In this document: one piece after another, positions 17,760 to 25,335 of the stretch
Position numbering within the stretch: the first letter of the stretch is position 1
How the letters are laid out: every line of letters begins with the position of its first letter
From: Escherichia phage Ec_MI-02
Sequence record: OP856590.1
Reading direction: 5' to 3' (one strand)
DNA length: 64,000 nt
Notes under the pieces: model-generated
What the model was told of the DNA's origin: nothing
Databases searched by the model: none
The model's input: the letters and a program-made list of their open reading frames with translations, nothing else
Position numbers and translations under genes: made by a program

Positions 17760-19817
17760 CTACATCTTGAACTTTTTAGACATTCCGTTGATGTTAACCA
17801 AAGAAGCCAAGATTTGAGAAACTTCGTTTTCCTCTTCTTTTGATTCTTCTACAAGGAATTGATTAAACCCAGCCATTGGACGAACTTCACCAGTTTCCAT
17901 TAGATGATCGCCATCATATACCGATTCTTCTAATTGTTCAGAAGGAGGAACGATTGTGCCTTCGATTAGATACTTATTATAAGCAGTTTCTTTCATCATG
18001 TACGTGCTCACTTTATTAATCTTCAGCAAAATTCCACGCGGTAAAATAACTTCAGCTTCTGATGGAAATCCTGATAAATGACCTGGAACGATAACTTTGA
18101 TTCGCTCAGCCCCTTTAATTACCATACCTACGCTAGTTTCAGCATCTTCATTAGCATATGCAGAATGACTACCCATATGCATTAAATCTTCAGCATCAAC
18201 AGAACCTTCTCCTTCACCAGAAAATACTGCGCCGGAATCATCTAGAGCCATATAGTTTTTACCATGCTCACCGAAGATATTTGGTTTAAGCGATGTTGAT
18301 ACGAAGTTCTTGAAATAGAACATTTTATTTTCAATATTATGACGTAAAGTTTTAAAAGTAACTTCTTGTCCACGATAAAGCGTAGTTCCCGGAGGAAGAA
18401 CTGATCCTTTGGCAAAGGCAGAATCCATTGTCTCGATGTGTTTAATAGCTCGTTCCATGTATTCTTCACGGGTAGAATCTGGTTTACCCAAGAGGAACGA
18501 GTTCATTTCAACATATGAATCTGCACAATAATCTTCGATTACATCAGACTCAGCCTGAGTCAGTCCTTTTGGAGTTACTTCGGTGCTTGCATATTCATAT
18601 GCCTGAGCAGCAGATTCATTAATCAATTTATAAATGCCATTCATGACAAATTGAATAATAGCTACCTTTTCGTCTGGTGTGGCTTTAGAACCTTTAACTA
18701 AATCATTGATAATTTTCTTAATAACATCAAAGCTATTAGAAATATTAATGTCAGCGAGATCGCTCAAAATTTTATCGGTTTTATAATCAAAAAATTCTTT
18801 ATTCTTTAAATATTCTTGAGAACCTTGATGTGTTATATCGCTCTGCAGTCTGATAGACGGATCACGTAAACGTGCATGGGCCAATGCAATATGATTTCGG
18901 AAGCTTTCTAGTTCATAATCGCTAGATTTAAAACGAGAAGCACTTCTCATACCACCGATAGCTCCTTTTCCGAAGTTTGAACCAATCTGAATAACACCAG
19001 AGTTCATTGGTCCTTCTGCTTTATATACCGGAACTTTAGATTCAAACTCTTGATATTTCTTGGCAGCGAAGCTATCACCCTGAAGCGAAGCATCTACAGT
19101 AGAATATTGAGCTTGTGCTGCCAATCGACGACTAATTTTAGTTTTCTGAATAACAGCTTGATCCGTGCGCTTATCATTTTCTAAAGCAATAGAAGCAGCA
19201 ACAGCAACAGCTTTAGGAACAGCATTACCTGTTTTAACATCTACATAAACATCACCAACCTTTGATTCAACTTTTGTGAATAACTCAGTTGAAATAGGAG
19301 GTACACCTGGAATGTCTTCTAAATTGGCATTTTTACGGTAAACCATAATATATGCATACTTTTTATCATAATCCCAGATTTCCTTTAAAAGAACATATCG
19401 ACCTGCTCCTTTAGTACGTACTAAACGGTCAGCAATAACTTGCATTTGACGAGCAGCTCCATTTGTTTTACTTTTTAGTACGCGGAATAGGCATGCGTCA
19501 ATTTTATACTGTTTCATTGTTTGAAGAGCAGTATCAAAAACCGCATTAATGACACCAATTGGATTTCCACCCAAGTTTTTAAGTTTAACTAATGATAGTT
19601 TCTCATTAACACCTATCATTACGATATGCATCATTTTATCGCCTGGCTTAACGTTTTTATTTGTATCACCACCAGAGGTGTATGTACAAAATCTAAATCC
19701 AGGAAGCACACTTTCTTCGCCGGCTTGAATAGCAAAAATTTGAGGTATTTTATGCTTAGGATTTAAGTTAACAATCGGCGCCGAAGCGCCGTCAAATAAT
19801 TCTGTAATAAGTTCCAT
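17760..19817 (-). CDS. Alt-like ADP-ribosyltransferase paralog (copy B, diverged)
   Basis: 685 aa; N-terminal third similar to copy A; retains the ART motifs Arg (LYRGQ), FVSTSL and E-x-E (EAEVILPRG). Confidence 0.8.
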   Translation of the reverse strand: MELITELFDGASAPIVNLNPKHKIPQIFAIQAGEESVLPGFRFCTYTSGGDTNKNVKPGDKMMHIVMIGVNEKLSLVKLKNLGGNPIGVINAVFDTALQTMKQYKIDACLFRVLKSKTNGAARQMQVIADRLVRTKGAGRYVLLKEIWDYDKKYAYIMVYRKNANLEDIPGVPPISTELFTKVESKVGDVYVDVKTGNAVPKAVAVAASIALENDKRTDQAVIQKTKISRRLAAQAQYSTVDASLQGDSFAAKKYQEFESKVPVYKAEGPMNSGVIQIGSNFGKGAIGGMRSASRFKSSDYELESFRNHIALAHARLRDPSIRLQSDITHQGSQEYLKNKEFFDYKTDKILSDLADINISNSFDVIKKIINDLVKGSKATPDEKVAIIQFVMNGIYKLINESAAQAYEYASTEVTPKGLTQAESDVIEDYCADSYVEMNSFLLGKPDSTREEYMERAIKHIETMDSAFAKGSVLPPGTTLYRGQEVTFKTLRHNIENKMFYFKNFVSTSLKPNIFGEHGKNYMALDDSGAVFSGEGEGSVDAEDLMHMGSHSAYANEDAETSVGMVIKGAERIKVIVPGHLSGFPSEAEVILPRGILLKINKVSTYMMKETAYNKYLIEGTIVPPSEQLEESVYDGDHLMETGEVRPMAGFNQFLVEESKEEENEVSQILASLVNINGMSKKFKM

Positions 19818-19820
19818 GAT

Positions 19821-21878
19821 TTATCCTTGAACGAACTTGTAAGGCATGTTTGCAATATCTATGCAAGATGCAATAATTCCAAGAGATGATTCTACTTTTT
19901 GTTTAACATTTGATGAAACAAATGATGCAAAATCAACTCTGTCTTCTATTTCAATATCACCTGTCATTGCAACTACTTCACCGGTTTCCATTAGACGGTC
20001 ACCGTCATAAATTACTGATTCGGTGAGTTCTTCTGTAGTCATAACTTCAGCTTGAATAAGCTTGTTGTTAGTTTTAGCTGTTCCATCATTGTAAGATGCG
20101 TCGGTTATTTTATTGACTTTGACCATCAATCCACGCGGCAAAATGACTTCCATTTCATTTGAAGGCGCTAAACTTCCACCTGGTAAAACAACGTTGACTT
20201 TATCAGCCCCAGTAATAACCCATCCAATTCCAACTAAATTATCGCTAGAATTAACAAGTCCTTCATCGTTTTTATCGATAGAAATGTTTAGACGCTTTTC
20301 GTCTGGTAAAACACCCACAGCTGAATCAGTCATCCAAGTACCAAAAATGTTTGGATATAATGATGTTGATACAAAATTTCTAAAATAAAAAACTCGATTT
20401 TTTACCAATGCTTCATATATTGAAGGTAACATTCGCTGTGAACGATATAAAGTAATACCTTTTGGCAGTCGATCACCATTTTTAAAGGCTGAATCTAAAT
20501 TATCGATGGCTTGTTCTATTTCTGGTGCTGTTAAAATACTTGTACGCTCATCTGGATTATATAATCCCAAAAGAGCATTATTCATGTCTACATATCCTGA
20601 ACCTACGTATTCACGAATTCCGCGTTTTTGTGCCGGTGTGTATTTAGATGAATCTTTATTTTCGACTATAGAATGCAATGACCATCCAACGGTAAGAGCA
20701 TATCCACGTAATTCTCTTCGAATAATCTTTGTTTTTATTGCATTCCAAGAATTTTGCACTAACTCATTCGCAGCATCTTGATTTAAATGCGAATGCTTGT
20801 TAATATTTCTTTCTAACCAAGCACCTTTATATTTTTCTAAAGTATCATCAACTATAGAAGCAATAGTTTCTAAAGTTTTTATTGAAGTAATAGATTCTTT
20901 TCGTAATCTTTCTAAAGCTTTATTTTTTATTTCTGCATTAACATCAGATTCTTTATCTTCAGGAATTATAGAAGCTTCTCTGAATGCCATTCCAGCTGTA
21001 ACACTATTAAGAGCATTCTCTAATGCAAATCCTGAAGTAGAAATAACAGTTAATTCGTTAGCATCAGAAATTAAAGGCGCGTCAGCGGGTTTATTTAATT
21101 CTGCTGCTGAAGCCTCAAATTTTTGAAACATTGGTGTTTCAAATCTAGAAGATTCTAACGATTGACTTTGTGCAATTGCTCTACGGGAAATTTTAACTTT
21201 AACGATTACAGCTTGATCAGAACGTTTATCGTTTTCTTGCGCAATAGATGCTGCAATTGCCTCATTTTTAGTTACTTGAGCTCCAGTATCTTTATTGATA
21301 TAAACATCACCGACCTTCGATTCAACTTTAGTAAAGAGCTCGGTACTAATTTCCGGAACTCCTGGAATGTCTTCTAATGATACATTTTTGCGATGTATAA
21401 GAATATATGCGTACTTTTTATCGTAATCCCAGAGTTCCTTAAGAAGGACGTATCTGCCACCTGAACGACTGCGGATAAGTCTATCAGCAATAAGTTGAAT
21501 TTGACGAGCTTGACCAGCAGTTTTAGACTTAAGAATACGGAGCATACAGGCATCAATTTTATACTGACGCATCGTCTGCATCGCAACAGTAAAAACTGAA
21601 TTGATGTAATTAATTGGGCTTGGACCGAGACCTTTTAATTTAGCAATTGAACCTTTGGCAGTTAATGTAAAAGGAACAATATGCATCATTTTATCGCCCA
21701 TCTTTAAATCGCGATTAGTATCACCTCCAGATGTATAAGTACATAAACGAAAGCCTGGTTGTTCAATTGCGTCATCAACATGAACTGAAAAAATTTGCGG
21801 TATTTTCTTCTTTGGATTTAAGTTTGTAATCGGAAGAGTAGTATCTTCGTCAAATAATTCTGTAATAAGTTCCATCAT
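19821..21878 (-). CDS. alt: Alt ADP-ribosyltransferase (virion-packaged)
   Basis: 685 aa; MELITELFDEDTTLPITNL N-terminus; ART motifs LYRSQ, FVSTSL, EMEVILPRG. Confidence 0.9.
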   Translation of the reverse strand: MMELITELFDEDTTLPITNLNPKKKIPQIFSVHVDDAIEQPGFRLCTYTSGGDTNRDLKMGDKMMHIVPFTLTAKGSIAKLKGLGPSPINYINSVFTVAMQTMRQYKIDACMLRILKSKTAGQARQIQLIADRLIRSRSGGRYVLLKELWDYDKKYAYILIHRKNVSLEDIPGVPEISTELFTKVESKVGDVYINKDTGAQVTKNEAIAASIAQENDKRSDQAVIVKVKISRRAIAQSQSLESSRFETPMFQKFEASAAELNKPADAPLISDANELTVISTSGFALENALNSVTAGMAFREASIIPEDKESDVNAEIKNKALERLRKESITSIKTLETIASIVDDTLEKYKGAWLERNINKHSHLNQDAANELVQNSWNAIKTKIIRRELRGYALTVGWSLHSIVENKDSSKYTPAQKRGIREYVGSGYVDMNNALLGLYNPDERTSILTAPEIEQAIDNLDSAFKNGDRLPKGITLYRSQRMLPSIYEALVKNRVFYFRNFVSTSLYPNIFGTWMTDSAVGVLPDEKRLNISIDKNDEGLVNSSDNLVGIGWVITGADKVNVVLPGGSLAPSNEMEVILPRGLMVKVNKITDASYNDGTAKTNNKLIQAEVMTTEELTESVIYDGDRLMETGEVVAMTGDIEIEDRVDFASFVSSNVKQKVESSLGIIASCIDIANMPYKFVQG

Positions 21879-21929: not shown

Positions 21930-22116
21930 AATAATCTATTGGTAAGAGAGTACGGTATATTTCAAACTTTGGACCTTTTTCATAGGCATCAAATGTTTCT
22001 GTGAATTTATTATAAGCATATGCATCTATAAATTCAATCATAATTTGTGATACAGAAGTAGAAACATCTCCACCTTCTTTTTGAGCCACGACAATTGTTT
22101 CTAAATAAGCTTTCAT
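21928..22116 (-). CDS. hypothetical protein (62 aa)
   Basis: ORF whose start overlaps the ligase stop. Confidence 0.6.
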   Translation of the reverse strand: MKAYLETIVVAQKEGGDVSTSVSQIMIEFIDAYAYNKFTETFDAYEKGPKFEIYRTLLPIDY

Positions 22117-23576
22117 AGACCAGTTACCTCATGAAAATCACCAAATACATCCTCGAATGTATTAGCTTTAGTTTTATCTTCACGTAAACGAATCGCAATT
22201 GGAAGAAATAATTTAACGTAATCGGTGCGGCCATCAGATTTTAACCAACCATTACATTCGCATTCTAGAATTTTTCCAATATAATAATTTTGGTTTTCCA
22301 TAATGCGAGTACGGTCAAGTTCATGCGATTTTACACCGGCTTTATCTTTTAAACCTGAACCAGCATTTACTTTAATTTTTCCACATTCTGATTCAAGAAT
22401 AAATCCACCCGCTTTAGTAGGGTCTTTACGGTGAGGATAAATTCCTACAATTTTTAAATCAACATCAATTACTTCTTTAAATTTATAGAGATTTTTTGAA
22501 CGAGCATTTTCCCATAATCCATCGATATTTTTGAGAATAATACCTTCAAGACCTTGGTCAATATACTTTTTATAAATTACCTTAGCTTCATCTAGGTTAT
22601 TTACTATCTGGTTTTCAATTAAAATTACTTTATCATATCCTGATGTCATTTGTTCTAGTTTAGAAAAACGTACATCATATTTTAAACGAAACGCTGGAAG
22701 ACCGTATATTTCTACCAACGGGACATAATCCCAGACCTGAAACTTCATGCATTGAGCTTCTTTTTCAGAAATGGTTCCCTTTAAAGATTTATTGGCGATT
22801 CCATTAGAAGTAGTACGAGATTCCGCTACTTCGGCGAATTCTTTAGCTTTACTAATTTCAGGATAAGCATCAAAAAGAAAATCTAGGCCTTCTGGTTCCT
22901 TTTTAACTTGCTCATGGTATACCAATTCGCCATCAATTAACACACCTTCTGGATGAATCTGGCGGGCTTCAGCAGTCATTTTGATTAATTCTTCCTTAAG
23001 AAGATCTAATCCTAGATATTCATTACCAGCTCGTGATAAAAGACGAACATCATCTAATTCATCGCCTCGGACTTCAGCAAAACACCGGGCTCCATCTGCT
23101 TTTAACTGTGCAAAGGCTGGAAATTTGATATTCTTACTAATGCCTTTTTCATCATAAGAACTTGCCAGCATTTGAGGTTGTTCAGGAATTAAACCTGGCC
23201 AAACTTTGTTTGCAATAGATACTGAAGCACCGCATTCAAGGTCTCGCATCATCACTCGACGCAAAACTTCAACATCATCCTTTTTACCATCAGTGATATA
23301 TCCAGTTAATTCCTCAATTGCCGCATTTCCAGTCAATTTCCGAGTAGCTAACGTGAATTCAATGAAGTCAAGCATATCGGTAATAGTCAGCATTCCAAAA
23401 CTCTGGGTAGCAATACCAGGCTTAGGCCATTTCTTGATATAATACTGTAACCCACGAGAATAAGTCAGACGATATACTCGTTTAAGCAATTCGTTATCTT
23501 TATTCTTTTCAAGAATTGCTTGCTTCTGCTTAGTTGATCCAATAGATGCTATTTCATTCAGAATTTTAAGAATCAT
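22113..23576 (-). CDS. 30: ATP-dependent DNA ligase gp30
   Basis: 487 aa; MILKILNEIASIGSTKQKQAILEKN N-terminus and adenylation motif KADGAR. Confidence 0.95.
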   Translation of the reverse strand: MILKILNEIASIGSTKQKQAILEKNKDNELLKRVYRLTYSRGLQYYIKKWPKPGIATQSFGMLTITDMLDFIEFTLATRKLTGNAAIEELTGYITDGKKDDVEVLRRVMMRDLECGASVSIANKVWPGLIPEQPQMLASSYDEKGISKNIKFPAFAQLKADGARCFAEVRGDELDDVRLLSRAGNEYLGLDLLKEELIKMTAEARQIHPEGVLIDGELVYHEQVKKEPEGLDFLFDAYPEISKAKEFAEVAESRTTSNGIANKSLKGTISEKEAQCMKFQVWDYVPLVEIYGLPAFRLKYDVRFSKLEQMTSGYDKVILIENQIVNNLDEAKVIYKKYIDQGLEGIILKNIDGLWENARSKNLYKFKEVIDVDLKIVGIYPHRKDPTKAGGFILESECGKIKVNAGSGLKDKAGVKSHELDRTRIMENQNYYIGKILECECNGWLKSDGRTDYVKLFLPIAIRLREDKTKANTFEDVFGDFHEVTGL

Positions 23577-23842
23577 TGTTCATCCTTCAGAGTTTGATTT
23601 ACATTTCTATTATAAATCAATTCATCATTAAGCTCAGGCAAAGACTTGTGATATGTAGTTCTAACTTTATTTCCTTGCATCCAGTGCTTGACGTAAATGA
23701 AACCTTGCTCTACACATTTTTTAAAAATTCGTTCGTCTTTTTGAGCTCGGAATTCTGGATTGCATCTAAAAAATTGATTTACGTGACCGTAATCACGTGT
23801 AGTATTACCTTCATTTTCATAAATAGTATGAACAACAAACAT
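23573..23842 (-). CDS. hypothetical protein (30.1 position)
   Basis: 89-aa ORF, ATGA-coupled to neighbours. Confidence 0.65.
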   Translation of the reverse strand: MFVVHTIYENEGNTTRDYGHVNQFFRCNPEFRAQKDERIFKKCVEQGFIYVKHWMQGNKVRTTYHKSLPELNDELIYNRNVNQTLKDEQ

Positions 23843-24681
23843 TAGAATGCTCCTTGGAAAATATTATCACCACAAGTAGGTCTATTATACAAATACTCTA
23901 TACCACCAGGTTTAATATAGTTCCATGTCTGAAATGGATGTGTCTGATATGGATGATATAGATGATTATAAGGATTAAATCCAGGCGTTCTCCAGGTAGT
24001 GTTCCAAGGAAAAGAATCGTTTTTAACCATCTTCTCAATTAAATCTTTTATAGCTTTTTCACTATCAAAACTTTCTTTATTTTCCTTTGGTGAAAAAAGC
24101 TTATTTTCTATATCATTCCATGTATAAACTCGCTGGGCAGTTTTTGGAATATTGTCACGCTCTCCTCGAGCCATCCAATACACAGGAACATTTAATATTT
24201 CACTCGCATGATCGCAATGGTGAGCGAGATCGTCAATATAACAAATTACGCTATATTTCTCTTTTGCCTTTTTGAACAACTCTTCTTTTGAAGAATCATG
24301 AACACACATCATTACTTCTGAGAAGGCACCAGGAAAAAGAGCATTCAAATTAAATTGACGATTCAACAGAGCGTCAATAGAATCACCCAATGCTGTGACA
24401 GCTACAAAATTATAATCTTCTTTTAATTTGTTAATTACACACAGGGCATCTTTATATGGAGACAAGTAACGAATAAAATCTGATCGATTGTATTTTTCAA
24501 TTAGCTTGACACCGAGTTCTTCATCACAATTAAAGAGTTTACCCGGAGAAATAAATTTCTCATCTTGGATCATTTTTAAAATATGTTCTAACGGAAGATT
24601 ATATTTCTGAGCAAAATAAGGAAGGCCTGATTGCCAGCTTAAACATACTCCATCAATATCAGTTAAAATAGTAGGCTTCAT
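23842..24681 (-). CDS. hypothetical protein, possibly HAD-like hydrolase (30.2 position)
   Basis: 279 aa; N-terminal LTDIDGV resembles HAD motif I (DxDG); assignment tentative. Confidence 0.6.
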   Translation of the reverse strand: MKPTILTDIDGVCLSWQSGLPYFAQKYNLPLEHILKMIQDEKFISPGKLFNCDEELGVKLIEKYNRSDFIRYLSPYKDALCVINKLKEDYNFVAVTALGDSIDALLNRQFNLNALFPGAFSEVMMCVHDSSKEELFKKAKEKYSVICYIDDLAHHCDHASEILNVPVYWMARGERDNIPKTAQRVYTWNDIENKLFSPKENKESFDSEKAIKDLIEKMVKNDSFPWNTTWRTPGFNPYNHLYHPYQTHPFQTWNYIKPGGIEYLYNRPTCGDNIFQGAF

Positions 24682-25142
24682 AGAGAGTCTCTTAATAGGT
24701 TTAACACATCAATAAATTCAGCTTCGGTTAATATTGTATCATCTTTTGTTAGACCATTAGCCATGCTGTGCTTCAAAACTTTTCCTTTCGAGGCTTGTAA
24801 TGCATCACGAAAGCCCTTGTTTTGGAACGCTGCTTCAAAATATGCATTTGTATATAATTCTTTCCACGCTGGAGAGTATCTTGAAAACGGAACTCCAAGC
24901 CAGAAGAGGGTCCCACGGTCCTGAGCTCTAGCATAAGACCTTCCAGCTTGTTGGGCGGCAAGCCCGGATAACCCAAATATACGACGTTGTTGTTCAATAT
25001 TTTTCACCTTACACCCTTGGAGGAATCCTTCGAGACCTCCAAATTGGATACCATCCATAACAAAAGGCCATTGGGCGAAATTACTTAATGCGCATGATGG
25101 CCATCTAAAATTGCTTCTAATCTCTAACTCAGACATTTTCAA
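24678..25142 (-). CDS. NADAR (YbiA-like, DUF1768) domain protein (30.3 position)
   Basis: 154 aa; LSNFAQWPFVMDGIQF...LEGFLQ resembles the YbiA/NADAR signature. Confidence 0.7.
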   Translation of the reverse strand: MKMSELEIRSNFRWPSCALSNFAQWPFVMDGIQFGGLEGFLQGCKVKNIEQQRRIFGLSGLAAQQAGRSYARAQDRGTLFWLGVPFSRYSPAWKELYTNAYFEAAFQNKGFRDALQASKGKVLKHSMANGLTKDDTILTEAEFIDVLNLLRDSL

Positions 25143-25335
25143 TACTTATAATTTCAACATCAGCCCAATGACCATAGCAAGGAAGACGAAATTCAACTGG
25201 CCAGTTAGGGTCCTTTTCTAATATAATAGACTGTACTTGTGGCTCTTCATATTCATCGGTATACGGACCTTTATACGTTACTTTATATGTGACCTTAATG
25301 TACTGAATTCCAAAAATCTTATTAATTATATTCAT
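25129..25335 (-). CDS. hypothetical protein (68 aa)
   Basis: small ORF in the operon. Confidence 0.55.
   Translation of the reverse strand: MNIINKIFGIQYIKVTYKVTYKGPYTDEYEEPQVQSIILEKDPNWPVEFRLPCYGHWADVEIISIENV

Follow-up and report, generated by a model that had tools for sequence, protein, structure and literature searches.

Genes 30.3 and 30.2 of Escherichia phage Ec_MI-02 very probably encode, respectively, AdfN, a NADAR protein that counters DarTG1, and a HAD-type phosphatase that acts independently of that counter-defense. Our analysis covered a stretch of 64,000 nucleotides of the phage genome (sequence record OP856590.1; hereafter the window). In the window we examined orthology, intact length, conservation of catalytic residues and the NADAR fold, and the function was taken from published work on phage T4. 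The finding on adfN is right but already known, as it was published for the 97%-identical T4 orthologue.

Identification of gene 30.3

The smaller open reading frame (ORF) was originally described as a 154-aa frame at 24678-25142. We found it on the minus strand with a TTG start, carrying ...LSNFAQWPFVMDGIQFGGLEGFLQGCK... as quoted. The start of the gene is probably the ATG at 25136 (152 aa), which makes the TTG start two codons too long. We favor this ATG because the T4 annotation starts there, because the published catalytic numbering (E36, K43) fits that start alone, and because the stop codon of gene 30.4, just upstream, overlaps it (ATGTCTGA). Alignment with T4 gp30.3 (NP_049816) showed 148 of 152 residues to be identical (97%) without truncation, and the protein ends LLRDSL, as does T4 gp30.3. 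The four differences were I47, F104, M125 and N127, which are V, I, I and S in T4. Judged by its sequence, the ORF is adfN, the orthologue of T4 gene 30.3, and it encodes a minimal NADAR protein with a single domain. Its features are as follows:

24678..25136, minus strand: adfN (T4 gene 30.3), 152-aa phage-type NADAR, predicted DNA guanine-ADP-ribose glycohydrolase (T4 identity, PF08010, AlphaFold, fold matches, PMC11825919)
25029..25031, minus strand: E36 codon GAA, catalytic Glu of LEGFLQ (read from the sequence; aligned with the Glu of YbiA SEHYFQ)
25008..25010, minus strand: K43 codon AAG, ADP-ribose phosphate-binding Lys (read from the sequence)
24768..24770, minus strand: H123 codon CAC, phage-NADAR histidine of the last strand (read from the sequence; LKHS, directly after model strand 120-122)
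24678..24725, minus strand: C-terminal helix (~residues 138-152) and stop codon (model helix 138-151; intact; absent from the DarTG1-sensitive RB69 allele)

The assignment of the small ORF to NADAR, made in the original prediction from its YbiA-like motif, was borne out at the level of family, profile and fold. A Pfam scan matched the protein to PF08010 (Phage_30_3) at 2.7e-69 (231.7 bits versus a cutoff of 36), and this family is the 'phage NADAR / gp30.3' branch within the NADAR superfamily (PMC11125620, PMC11543638). The YbiA-type model PF08719 (NADAR) did not match the protein at E <= 0.1 in the same scan, and single-sequence searches of NCBIfam, PADLOC and PDB sequences likewise gave no match. 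Because the protein has no PF08719, NCBIfam or PADLOC match of its own, its placement in the superfamily rests on transitive profile matches together with the fold. That is, PF08719 was matched by 14 of 74 diverse family members (best 3.5e-6), and the best PDB match of the family profile was YbiA, across the FSNFAAWP...SEHYFQ motif. An exhaustive search with the profile returned 1,448 clusters; its members are very numerous and in many cases multidomain.

The AlphaFold model of the protein (pLDDT 96.1, pTM 0.90) has the NADAR fold, which consists of a helical core and two small flanking beta-sheets. In a Foldseek search of the PDB, the top three matches were 2b3w (YbiA), 8bat (G. lovleyi NADAR) and 8bau (P. 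nicotianae NADAR), each at probability 1.00 with TM 0.59-0.67. The next match had a probability <=0.07, so that the model matched solved NADAR structures only. Together, profiles and model place the protein in the NADAR superfamily (phage branch), and we do not file it in the YbiA family.

The residues expected of an active enzyme were conserved. The Glu of LEGFLQ is E36 and was invariant in 74 diverse homologues. In T4 AdfN this residue is needed: the E36A mutant lost de-ADP-ribosylation in vitro and gave only partial rescue in vivo (PMC11825919). K43, the mutation of which to Ala weakened T4 AdfN (PMC11825919), was at least 90% conserved in the 74 homologues and aligned with the Lys of YbiA SEHYFQAQK. 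The two residues are spaced by 7 residues, as are E88 and K95 of the E. coli C7 NADAR. H123 did not vary within the close family, and its conservation across the wide family was at least 90%; at this position of the last strand, phage NADARs carry His, YbiA Glu and DarG1 Asp (PMC11543638, PMC11125620). All four substitutions relative to T4 are conservative, and M125 and N127 lie near H123. Lastly, alignment and model showed that the C-terminal helix lost in RB69 is kept here, leaving AdfN full length; the 15-residue truncation of the RB69 allele lowers activity (PMC11825919).

Genomic setting

The genome is T4-like (Tequatrovirus) and carries both genes on its minus strand; the window keeps the T4 gene order alt, 30, 30.1, 30.2, 30.3, 30.4. 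The region is genuine conserved coding sequence and not a chance occurrence; a sequence search found it 95-99% identical in 306 phage records. The pair had been described as lying downstream of the DNA ligase gene (22113-23576). This is true in plus-strand coordinates only; in the direction of transcription, which here follows the minus strand, both 30.3 and 30.2 precede the ligase gene. At least two ADP-ribosyltransferases (ARTs) had been ascribed to the phage, which is true within the window, where Alt and a tandem paralogue both match PF03496. The neighboring genes are as follows:

23573..23842, minus strand: gene 30.1 (DUF3045; PF11243, 4.5e-62; order as in T4; same operon)
22113..23576, minus strand: gene 30, ATP-dependent DNA ligase (PF01068, 3e-32; order as in T4; transcriptionally downstream)
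19821-21878, same strand as adfN: Alt (PF03496, 4.7e-34)
17769-19820, same strand as adfN: tandem Alt paralogue (41.6% identical; PF03496, 3.2e-20)

ModA and ModB are further genes of T4-type phages, located elsewhere in the genome.

Function of AdfN

T4 gp30.3 was renamed AdfN after it was found to strip from DNA the guanine-ADP-ribose deposited by DarT1 (Johannesman et al. 2025, PMC11825919). On DarTG1 hosts T4 requires adfN, and the gene is sufficient in the case of RB69 (PMC11825919), and in vitro the enzyme hydrolyzes G-ADPr and not T-ADPr (PMC11125620). In the published T4 transposon screen, insertions in 30.3 had a log2FC of -7.25 on DarTG1 and 0.03 on DarTG2. The gene is non-essential on K-12, where 27 of its 28 sites carry insertions, and DarTG1 was its sole phenotype in the screen. 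The 97% identity to the T4 protein suggests that AdfN of the window has the same enzymatic activity and anti-DarTG1 role. Upon infection of a DarTG1 host, the DarT1 toxin would ADP-ribosylate guanines of the phage DNA and block replication. AdfN would then hydrolyze the N-glycosidic bond between ADP-ribose and guanine via E36, K43 (contacting the ADP-ribose phosphate) and the phage-specific H123. The DNA would be unmodified again, ADP-ribose would be released, and replication could continue.

Two functions had been offered for the NADAR enzyme at the outset. The first, reversal of host ADP-ribosylation used as defense, has been established experimentally for the T4 orthologue and DarTG1. The second, for which we found no support, is that the enzyme acts on modifications made by the phage's own ARTs, the two Alt paralogues, for example by removing marks that are off-target or no longer needed. 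Two Alt-type ART genes do lie 3-7 kb from adfN on the same strand, but we consider this reading extremely unlikely: reported NADAR activities concern ADP-ribose attached to a base, which is guanine or, in some subfamilies, cytosine, whereas the T4 record describes Alt as an RNA polymerase (protein) ADP-ribosyltransferase. Moreover, the dispensability of adfN on K-12 and its phenotype on DarTG1 only speak against it, and alt insertions were without effect on DarTG1 (log2FC -0.01) in the T4 transposon screen.

A comparative-genomics proposal of 2022 held that phage NADARs act mainly on soluble ADP-ribose-derived immune signals or toxins, not on DNA adducts. The size and often multidomain make-up of the family make other substrates plausible in other members. 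As an account of this gene the proposal is improbable, however, because it is older than the T4 AdfN experiments, in which DNA guanine-ADPr activity and a DarTG1-specific phenotype were directly demonstrated for the orthologue.

Removal of guanine-ADP-ribose from DNA is the preferred function, but the simple view of AdfN as a free-standing eraser is incomplete, because AdfN-T4 did not rescue uninfected E. coli from DarT1 and did not fully rescue T5 and Bas25 (PMC11825919). AdfN-T4 works fully only in T-even infection (PMC11825919).

Gene 30.2 and its relation to adfN

The neighboring 279-aa ORF (23842-24681) is present on the minus strand, starts with ATG and begins MKPTILTDIDGVCLSW. It had been called HAD-like with little confidence, and fold searches and conserved motifs I-IV upheld the call. 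Its features are as follows:

24097..24681, minus strand: gene 30.2 residues 1-195, HAD-superfamily phosphatase domain with C1 helical cap
24652..24660, minus strand: HAD motif I, D8-I-D10 (GAT ATT GAT), nucleophile Asp and Asp+2 general acid/base (read from the sequence)
23842..24096, minus strand: gene 30.2 residues 196-279, helix 198-220 followed by an aromatic/Pro-rich, low-confidence tail; lineage-variable

None of the curated Pfam HAD models was matched by the window protein in a Pfam scan. Weak matches were seen among its 89 homologues: Hydrolase in 21, NT5C in 17 and HAD_2 in 10 (best 1.2e-4). Against PDB sequences, single-sequence and profile searches gave marginal matches only, the best profile match being cdN 2jao (E 0.095), covering motif I, the cap and motif II; because these matches were marginal, a fold search was needed. 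Fold searches confidently recovered the Rossmannoid HAD core with a cap, with matches spread evenly across many HAD class-I enzymes. Motif I (DxDx[T/V]) reads D8-I-D10-G-V12; motif II (S/T) is T96, with which strand 91-96 ends; motif III (K/R) is K132, ahead of helix 133-142; and motif IV (DD) is D150-D151, where strand 145-150 ends. Among the 89 homologues all of these were either invariant or conserved to at least 90%; D8 and D10 were invariant. Past about residue 220 the pLDDT of the model fell to 39-67, and many homologues end at ~200-220 aa, with only ~68% of the query covered.

By resemblance in sequence and model, 30.2 appears closest to the 5'(3')-deoxyribonucleotidases, though we do not file it as an NT5C member. 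It would be a HAD-type phosphatase that depends on Mg2+, carries a small-molecule (C1) cap and is translationally coupled to adfN, and we infer that its substrate is most likely a (deoxy)nucleoside monophosphate. A literature search on gp30.2 returned nothing relevant. In the published T4 transposon data, insertions in 30.2 had no phenotype on DarTG1, on DarTG2, or on M9 versus LB. We concluded that 30.2 is dispensable and acts independently of the DarTG1 counter-defense.

The 4-nt overlap ATGA between 30.3 and 30.2 points to translational coupling, and a NADAR gene lies directly upstream on the same strand in 36 of 79 loci of 30.2. These observations, and the full action of AdfN-T4 only during T-even infection, would fit a two-enzyme module in which 30.2 dephosphorylates the ADP-ribose-derived product of AdfN, or a role of 30.2 as the T-even factor that AdfN needs. 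We nevertheless judge either version highly unlikely. On DarTG1, insertions at 71 sites in 30.2 were not depleted (log2FC -0.12, p 0.61), whereas those in 30.3 were lost. A 30.2-like gene occurred within 5 kb in just 14 of 80 NADAR-seeded phage loci, a set that was seeded with [MI]E[GA][FL]LQ..K and left out the T4-type LEGFLQGCK, and so describes non-Tequatrovirus NADARs only. In several T4-like genomes, moreover, 30.2 and the NADAR gene are ~57-59 kb apart, and 30.2 remains by the ligase region, not by the NADAR gene. Linkage of the two genes is lineage-specific. The transposon data and this weak, lineage-specific synteny led us to reject both an obligate 30.2/30.3 module and 30.2 as an AdfN cofactor.

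Gene 30.4

The gene upstream of adfN has the following position:

25129..25335, minus strand: gene 30.4, 68-aa ORF, PHROG 2042 (its stop and the adfN start share 8 nt)

In the T4 transposon screen, the only two genes with a conditional effect on DarTG1 were adfN and 30.4 (log2FC -1.79, adjusted p 0.014 for 30.4). Gene 30.4 occurs alongside adfN only in close T-even relatives, the clade where AdfN-T4 works. A T-even-specific factor that AdfN-T4 requires for full activity is a tentative reading of 30.4, and on balance a doubtful one. A simpler reading of the phenotype is that adfN expression is reduced through lost translational coupling. Against strong polarity stands the finding that 30.1 fully tolerated insertions in the T4 transposon data, even though the next gene of its operon is the essential ligase gene.

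Implications

The adfN result leaves current understanding unchanged, but it moves the window gene from 'hypothetical protein' to a gene with known function. Annotation lags behind: tblastn found 1,510 phage records with the family, and almost all of the 40 sampled were still labeled hypothetical. We predict that Ec_MI-02, unlike RB69, resists hosts carrying DarTG1, a prediction that helps in forecasting host range and in choosing therapeutic phages. The results also allow 30.2 to be annotated as a phosphatase of the HAD family, as is already done in a few database entries for its homologues. Only the 30.4 lead points forward, to the question of why AdfN-T4 acts only in T-even infections.

Comparison with known systems

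Gene 30.2 shares just 15-21% identity with cdN/mdN (2jao, 2i7d, 1q92) and the deoxyribonucleotidase-like protein 3bwv. It differs from cdN/mdN and Pfam NT5C in lacking a Pfam HAD match of its own and in carrying an extra C-terminal extension of ~80 residues.

E. coli YbiA (2b3w; PF08719) is the best structural match to AdfN (TM 0.67/0.62, E 2.7e-5) and the best profile match to its family, on the FSNFAxWP...E..FQ..K motif. YbiA differs in having Glu at the third catalytic position; the two share 20% identity, and AdfN falls below PF08719 on its own. Published work connects YbiA with riboflavin-intermediate N-glycosidase activity and with swarming (PMC11125620).

The DarG1-type NADAR antitoxins (E. 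coli C7; G. lovleyi, 8bat) resemble AdfN in fold, in guanine-ADPr hydrolysis (T4 AdfN) and in the 7-residue Glu/Lys spacing. In contrast, they have Asp at the position of His123 and, at the N-terminus, additional elements forming a DNA channel, whereas the phage NADAR is a bare core. DarG1 neutralizes DarT1 in uninfected cells and AdfN-T4 does not; moreover, AdfN is an orphan without an adjacent darT.

AdfN-Bas32 and AdfN-Bas60, two non-T4 phage NADARs, are likewise phage-encoded orphans that counter DarTG1 and are guanine-specific (PMC11825919). However, they are independently acquired branches and are active without T-even infection, which AdfN-T4 is not (PMC11825919).

T4 AdfN itself differs from the window protein by the conservative changes V47I, I104F, I125M and S127N (T4 to window). 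The two proteins share 97% identity over 152 residues, the slot between 30.4 and 30.2, the residues E36, K43 and H123, and an intact C-terminal helix.

Gene order and boundaries

The window belongs to a T4-like phage genome (Tequatrovirus). Region 23573–25335 matched 306 phage records at 95–99% identity (best match, Shigella phage ESh16 at 98.6%), and gene order on the minus strand was exactly that of T4: alt, alt.1, 30 (ligase), 30.1, 30.2, 30.3, 30.4 and onward. The genes of interest are:

22113–23576, minus strand: gene 30, DNA ligase
23573–23842, minus strand: gene 30.1
23842–24681, minus strand: gene 30.2, HAD-fold protein, 279 aa
24678–25136, minus strand: gene 30.3 (adfN), NADAR protein, 152 aa
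24773–24997, minus strand: 74-aa ORF in another frame inside adfN, the counterpart of gene 30.3' in the T4 annotation, where it is described as translated internally in a frame of its own
25129–25335, minus strand: gene 30.4, 68 aa

The original prediction had described two ORFs with NADAR-like and HAD-like motifs, and both ORFs and motifs were found in the ORF listing of the window. It had placed the pair downstream of the ligase gene; in fact 30.3 and 30.2 lie upstream, because they are transcribed towards it. The 154-aa ORF predicted for 30.3 was also present, beginning with TTG at 25142 (minus strand), but the start is most likely the ATG at 25136, which gives 152 aa, because the T4 annotation is the same and the published E36/K43 numbering fits that start only. 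This ATG overlaps the stop of 30.4 (ATGTCTGA), and the overlap between 30.3 and 30.2 is ATGA.

Gene 30.3 encodes a NADAR protein

Hmmscan matched 30.3 to PF08010 (Phage_30_3) at 2.7e-69, with no direct match to PF08719, the YbiA-type NADAR model; NCBIfam, PADLOC and PDB returned nothing in single-sequence search. When ten close homologues were combined into a profile, the top PDB match was YbiA (2b3w; E 0.057); the alignment covered precisely the predicted motif, with E36 opposite the Glu and K43 opposite the Lys of SEHYFQAQK. An exhaustive HMM search recovered 1,448 clusters of the 30.3 family at E ≤ 0.001. Among 74 diverse single-domain members, all matched PF08010 and 14 also matched PF08719 (best 3.5e-6); these double matches link the two models transitively. 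AlphaFold gave a very confident model (pLDDT 96.1, pTM 0.90) with only three meaningful PDB matches, all of them the solved NADAR structures (YbiA 2b3w, G. lovleyi DarG1-type 8bat, and P. nicotianae with ADP-ribose 8bau), each at probability 1.00, and the next match was at 0.07. E36 was invariant in the 74 sequences, and K43 and H123 were at least 90% conserved. Phage NADARs are defined by this His (PMC11543638, PMC11125620), whereas YbiA has Glu and DarG1 has Asp at the position. Together, the profile, transitive, fold and conserved-residue results show that the NADAR call was correct, and that the conserved Glu singled out in it is the catalytic one, E36, whose replacement by Ala abolishes removal of ADP-ribose from DNA by the purified T4 protein (PMC11825919).

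Many gp30.3 relatives in databases are truncated to 86–126 aa or fused with PF11097, PF06919 or PF06019, other small T4 ORF families (e.g. phages SV76, NR1, UGJNEcP4 and RPN226). From this it seems that natural phages frequently carry a broken or recombined adfN, RB69 being one case, and those that do may be sensitive to DarTG1. Some family members of ~290–480 aa gave two or three matches each to the profile, suggestive of tandem NADAR domains; in many others the domain forms the C-terminal part of a longer protein. By tblastn, the AdfN family occurred in 1,510 of 50,697 phage records; nearly all of 40 sampled records call the gene a 'hypothetical protein', so public annotation lags the 2023–2025 literature.

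Orthology to T4 AdfN

Protein 30.3 was identical to T4 gp30.3 at 148 of 152 residues, gap-free and with a complete C-terminus; judged by this alignment, it is the orthologue of a characterised protein. Johannesman et al. mapped resistance of T-even phages to DarTG1, a toxin-antitoxin defence whose DarT1 toxin ADP-ribosylates guanines in phage DNA, to gene 30.3, renamed adfN (anti-DarT factor NADAR); T4 needs the gene for resistance, and the gene suffices for RB69, a phage with a naturally truncated version (PMC11825919). Purified T4 AdfN strips ADP-ribose from DarT1-modified DNA; in vivo, its function is weakened by K43A and by loss of 15 residues as in RB69 (PMC11825919). Independently, the T4 enzyme was found in vitro to cleave guanine-ADPr, not thymine-ADPr (PMC11125620). 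G-ADPr and C-ADPr were both offered to it as substrates in a 2026 study, which ascribes removal of C-ADPr solely to the NADAR and YbiA families and does not extend it to phage NADARs (PMC12945103). In a T4 transposon screen, insertions in 30.3 disappeared when the host carried DarTG1 (log2FC −7.25), but neither DarTG2 (0.03) nor minimal medium affected them (10.1101/2025.11.20.689424). AdfN-T4 gave no protection to uninfected E. coli from DarT1 and rescued T5 and Bas25 only weakly, and the authors who discovered it suspect that a further T-even protein is involved (PMC11825919). The first of two proposed roles, reversal of host ADP-ribosylation used as defence, is thus supported through the published role of the orthologue. 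Overall, the original observation is confirmed and its interpretation supported, and the finding is already known.

Gene 30.2 encodes a HAD-type protein

Protein 30.2 was 97% identical to T4 gp30.2, annotated as hypothetical, and matched no Pfam or NCBIfam model. AlphaFold was confident for residues 1–195 (pLDDT above 90), giving a core in which beta and alpha elements alternate, interrupted by a helical insert (residues 16–86); beyond residue 195 there are one helix and then ~55 low-confidence residues. The HAD motifs (D8xD10GV, T96, K132, D150-D151) were placed as the fold requires, and 89 homologues showed little or no variation in any of the four; with the beta/alpha core, this bears out a HAD call that had been offered as weak. 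From what is established for HAD proteins, the Asp+2 of 30.2 indicates a phosphotransferase rather than a dehalogenase. The C1 cap in the model points to a small-molecule substrate, not a polynucleotide end. Homologues weakly matched Pfam Hydrolase, NT5C and HAD_2, and a few of their database entries already read HAD hydrolase or deoxyribonucleotidase. We take 30.2 to be a dispensable phosphatase, and we infer a (deoxy)nucleotide or related small molecule as its substrate. Residues 196–279 (23842–24096, minus strand) form an extension rich in aromatic residues, Pro and Asn (FPWNTTWRTPGFNPYNHLYHPYQTHPFQTWNY...), of low model confidence; it is absent or different in most homologues, where conservation covers the first ~190 residues only.

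The ATGA overlap would suit a functional module of 30.2 and 30.3, as would a NADAR gene directly upstream on the same strand in 36 of 79 viral-contig 30.2 loci. However, a 30.2-like gene lay within 5 kb in only 14 of 80 NADAR-seeded loci, a set that the search pattern left without T4-type sequences. Some 57–59 kb separate the two genes in several T4-like genomes of 170 kb, where 30.2 remains in the ligase region; therefore, the NADAR gene moved or was separately acquired within the T4 superfamily. Decisively, T4 30.2 insertions (71 sites) were not depleted on DarTG1 (log2FC −0.12, p 0.61), DarTG2 (0.00) or M9 (−0.10) (10.1101/2025.11.20.689424), which is evidence that 30.2 takes no part in DarTG1 counter-defence. 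Their adjacency is synteny of particular lineages and does not make the two genes a module.

Gene 30.4

The DarTG1 sheet of the T4 screen lists two significant genes, 30.3 and, directly upstream, the 68-aa 30.4 (log2FC −1.79, adjusted p 0.014), which goes unmentioned in the main text of the preprint (10.1101/2025.11.20.689424). In the window 30.4 has no known domain and shares 8 nt with the beginning of adfN. Of the loci fetched, the 14 closest of T-even type have a 30.4 homologue directly beside the NADAR gene; none occurred in the other 22 30.2-linked NADAR loci or in the 80 NADAR-seeded loci. The simplest explanation for the depletion is lost translational coupling to adfN, but strong polarity is disfavoured, as 30.1 tolerates insertions fully although the next gene of its operon is the essential ligase gene, and the screen's authors argue against widespread polarity (10.1101/2025.11.20.689424). 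A genuine accessory role for gp30.4 is conceivable but unlikely. The added value here is modest: 30.2 gains a solid annotation as a HAD phosphatase, the evidence places it outside DarTG1 counter-defence, and 30.4 is a lead that bears on the additional protein suspected for AdfN-T4.

ADP-ribosyltransferases of the phage

The second proposed role was that the NADAR enzyme processes products of the phage's own ADP-ribosyltransferases, of which at least two were predicted; the window does encode two of Alt type. Nevertheless, the NADAR activities described in the studies consulted act on base-linked ADP-ribose (PMC11125620, PMC12945103), and in the T4 transposon data adfN is dispensable without DarTG1 and alt insertions leave DarTG1 resistance unaffected (10.1101/2025.11.20.689424). 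All three observations speak against this role, for which we found no support.

The second Alt-like ADP-ribosyltransferase (17769–19820, minus strand) is full length and in tandem with alt, is 41.6% identical to Alt and matches PF03496 at 3.2e-20. In contrast, T4 has at this position only the decayed fragments alt.-1 and alt.-2, which its annotation traces to an ancient duplication covering the initial part of alt.
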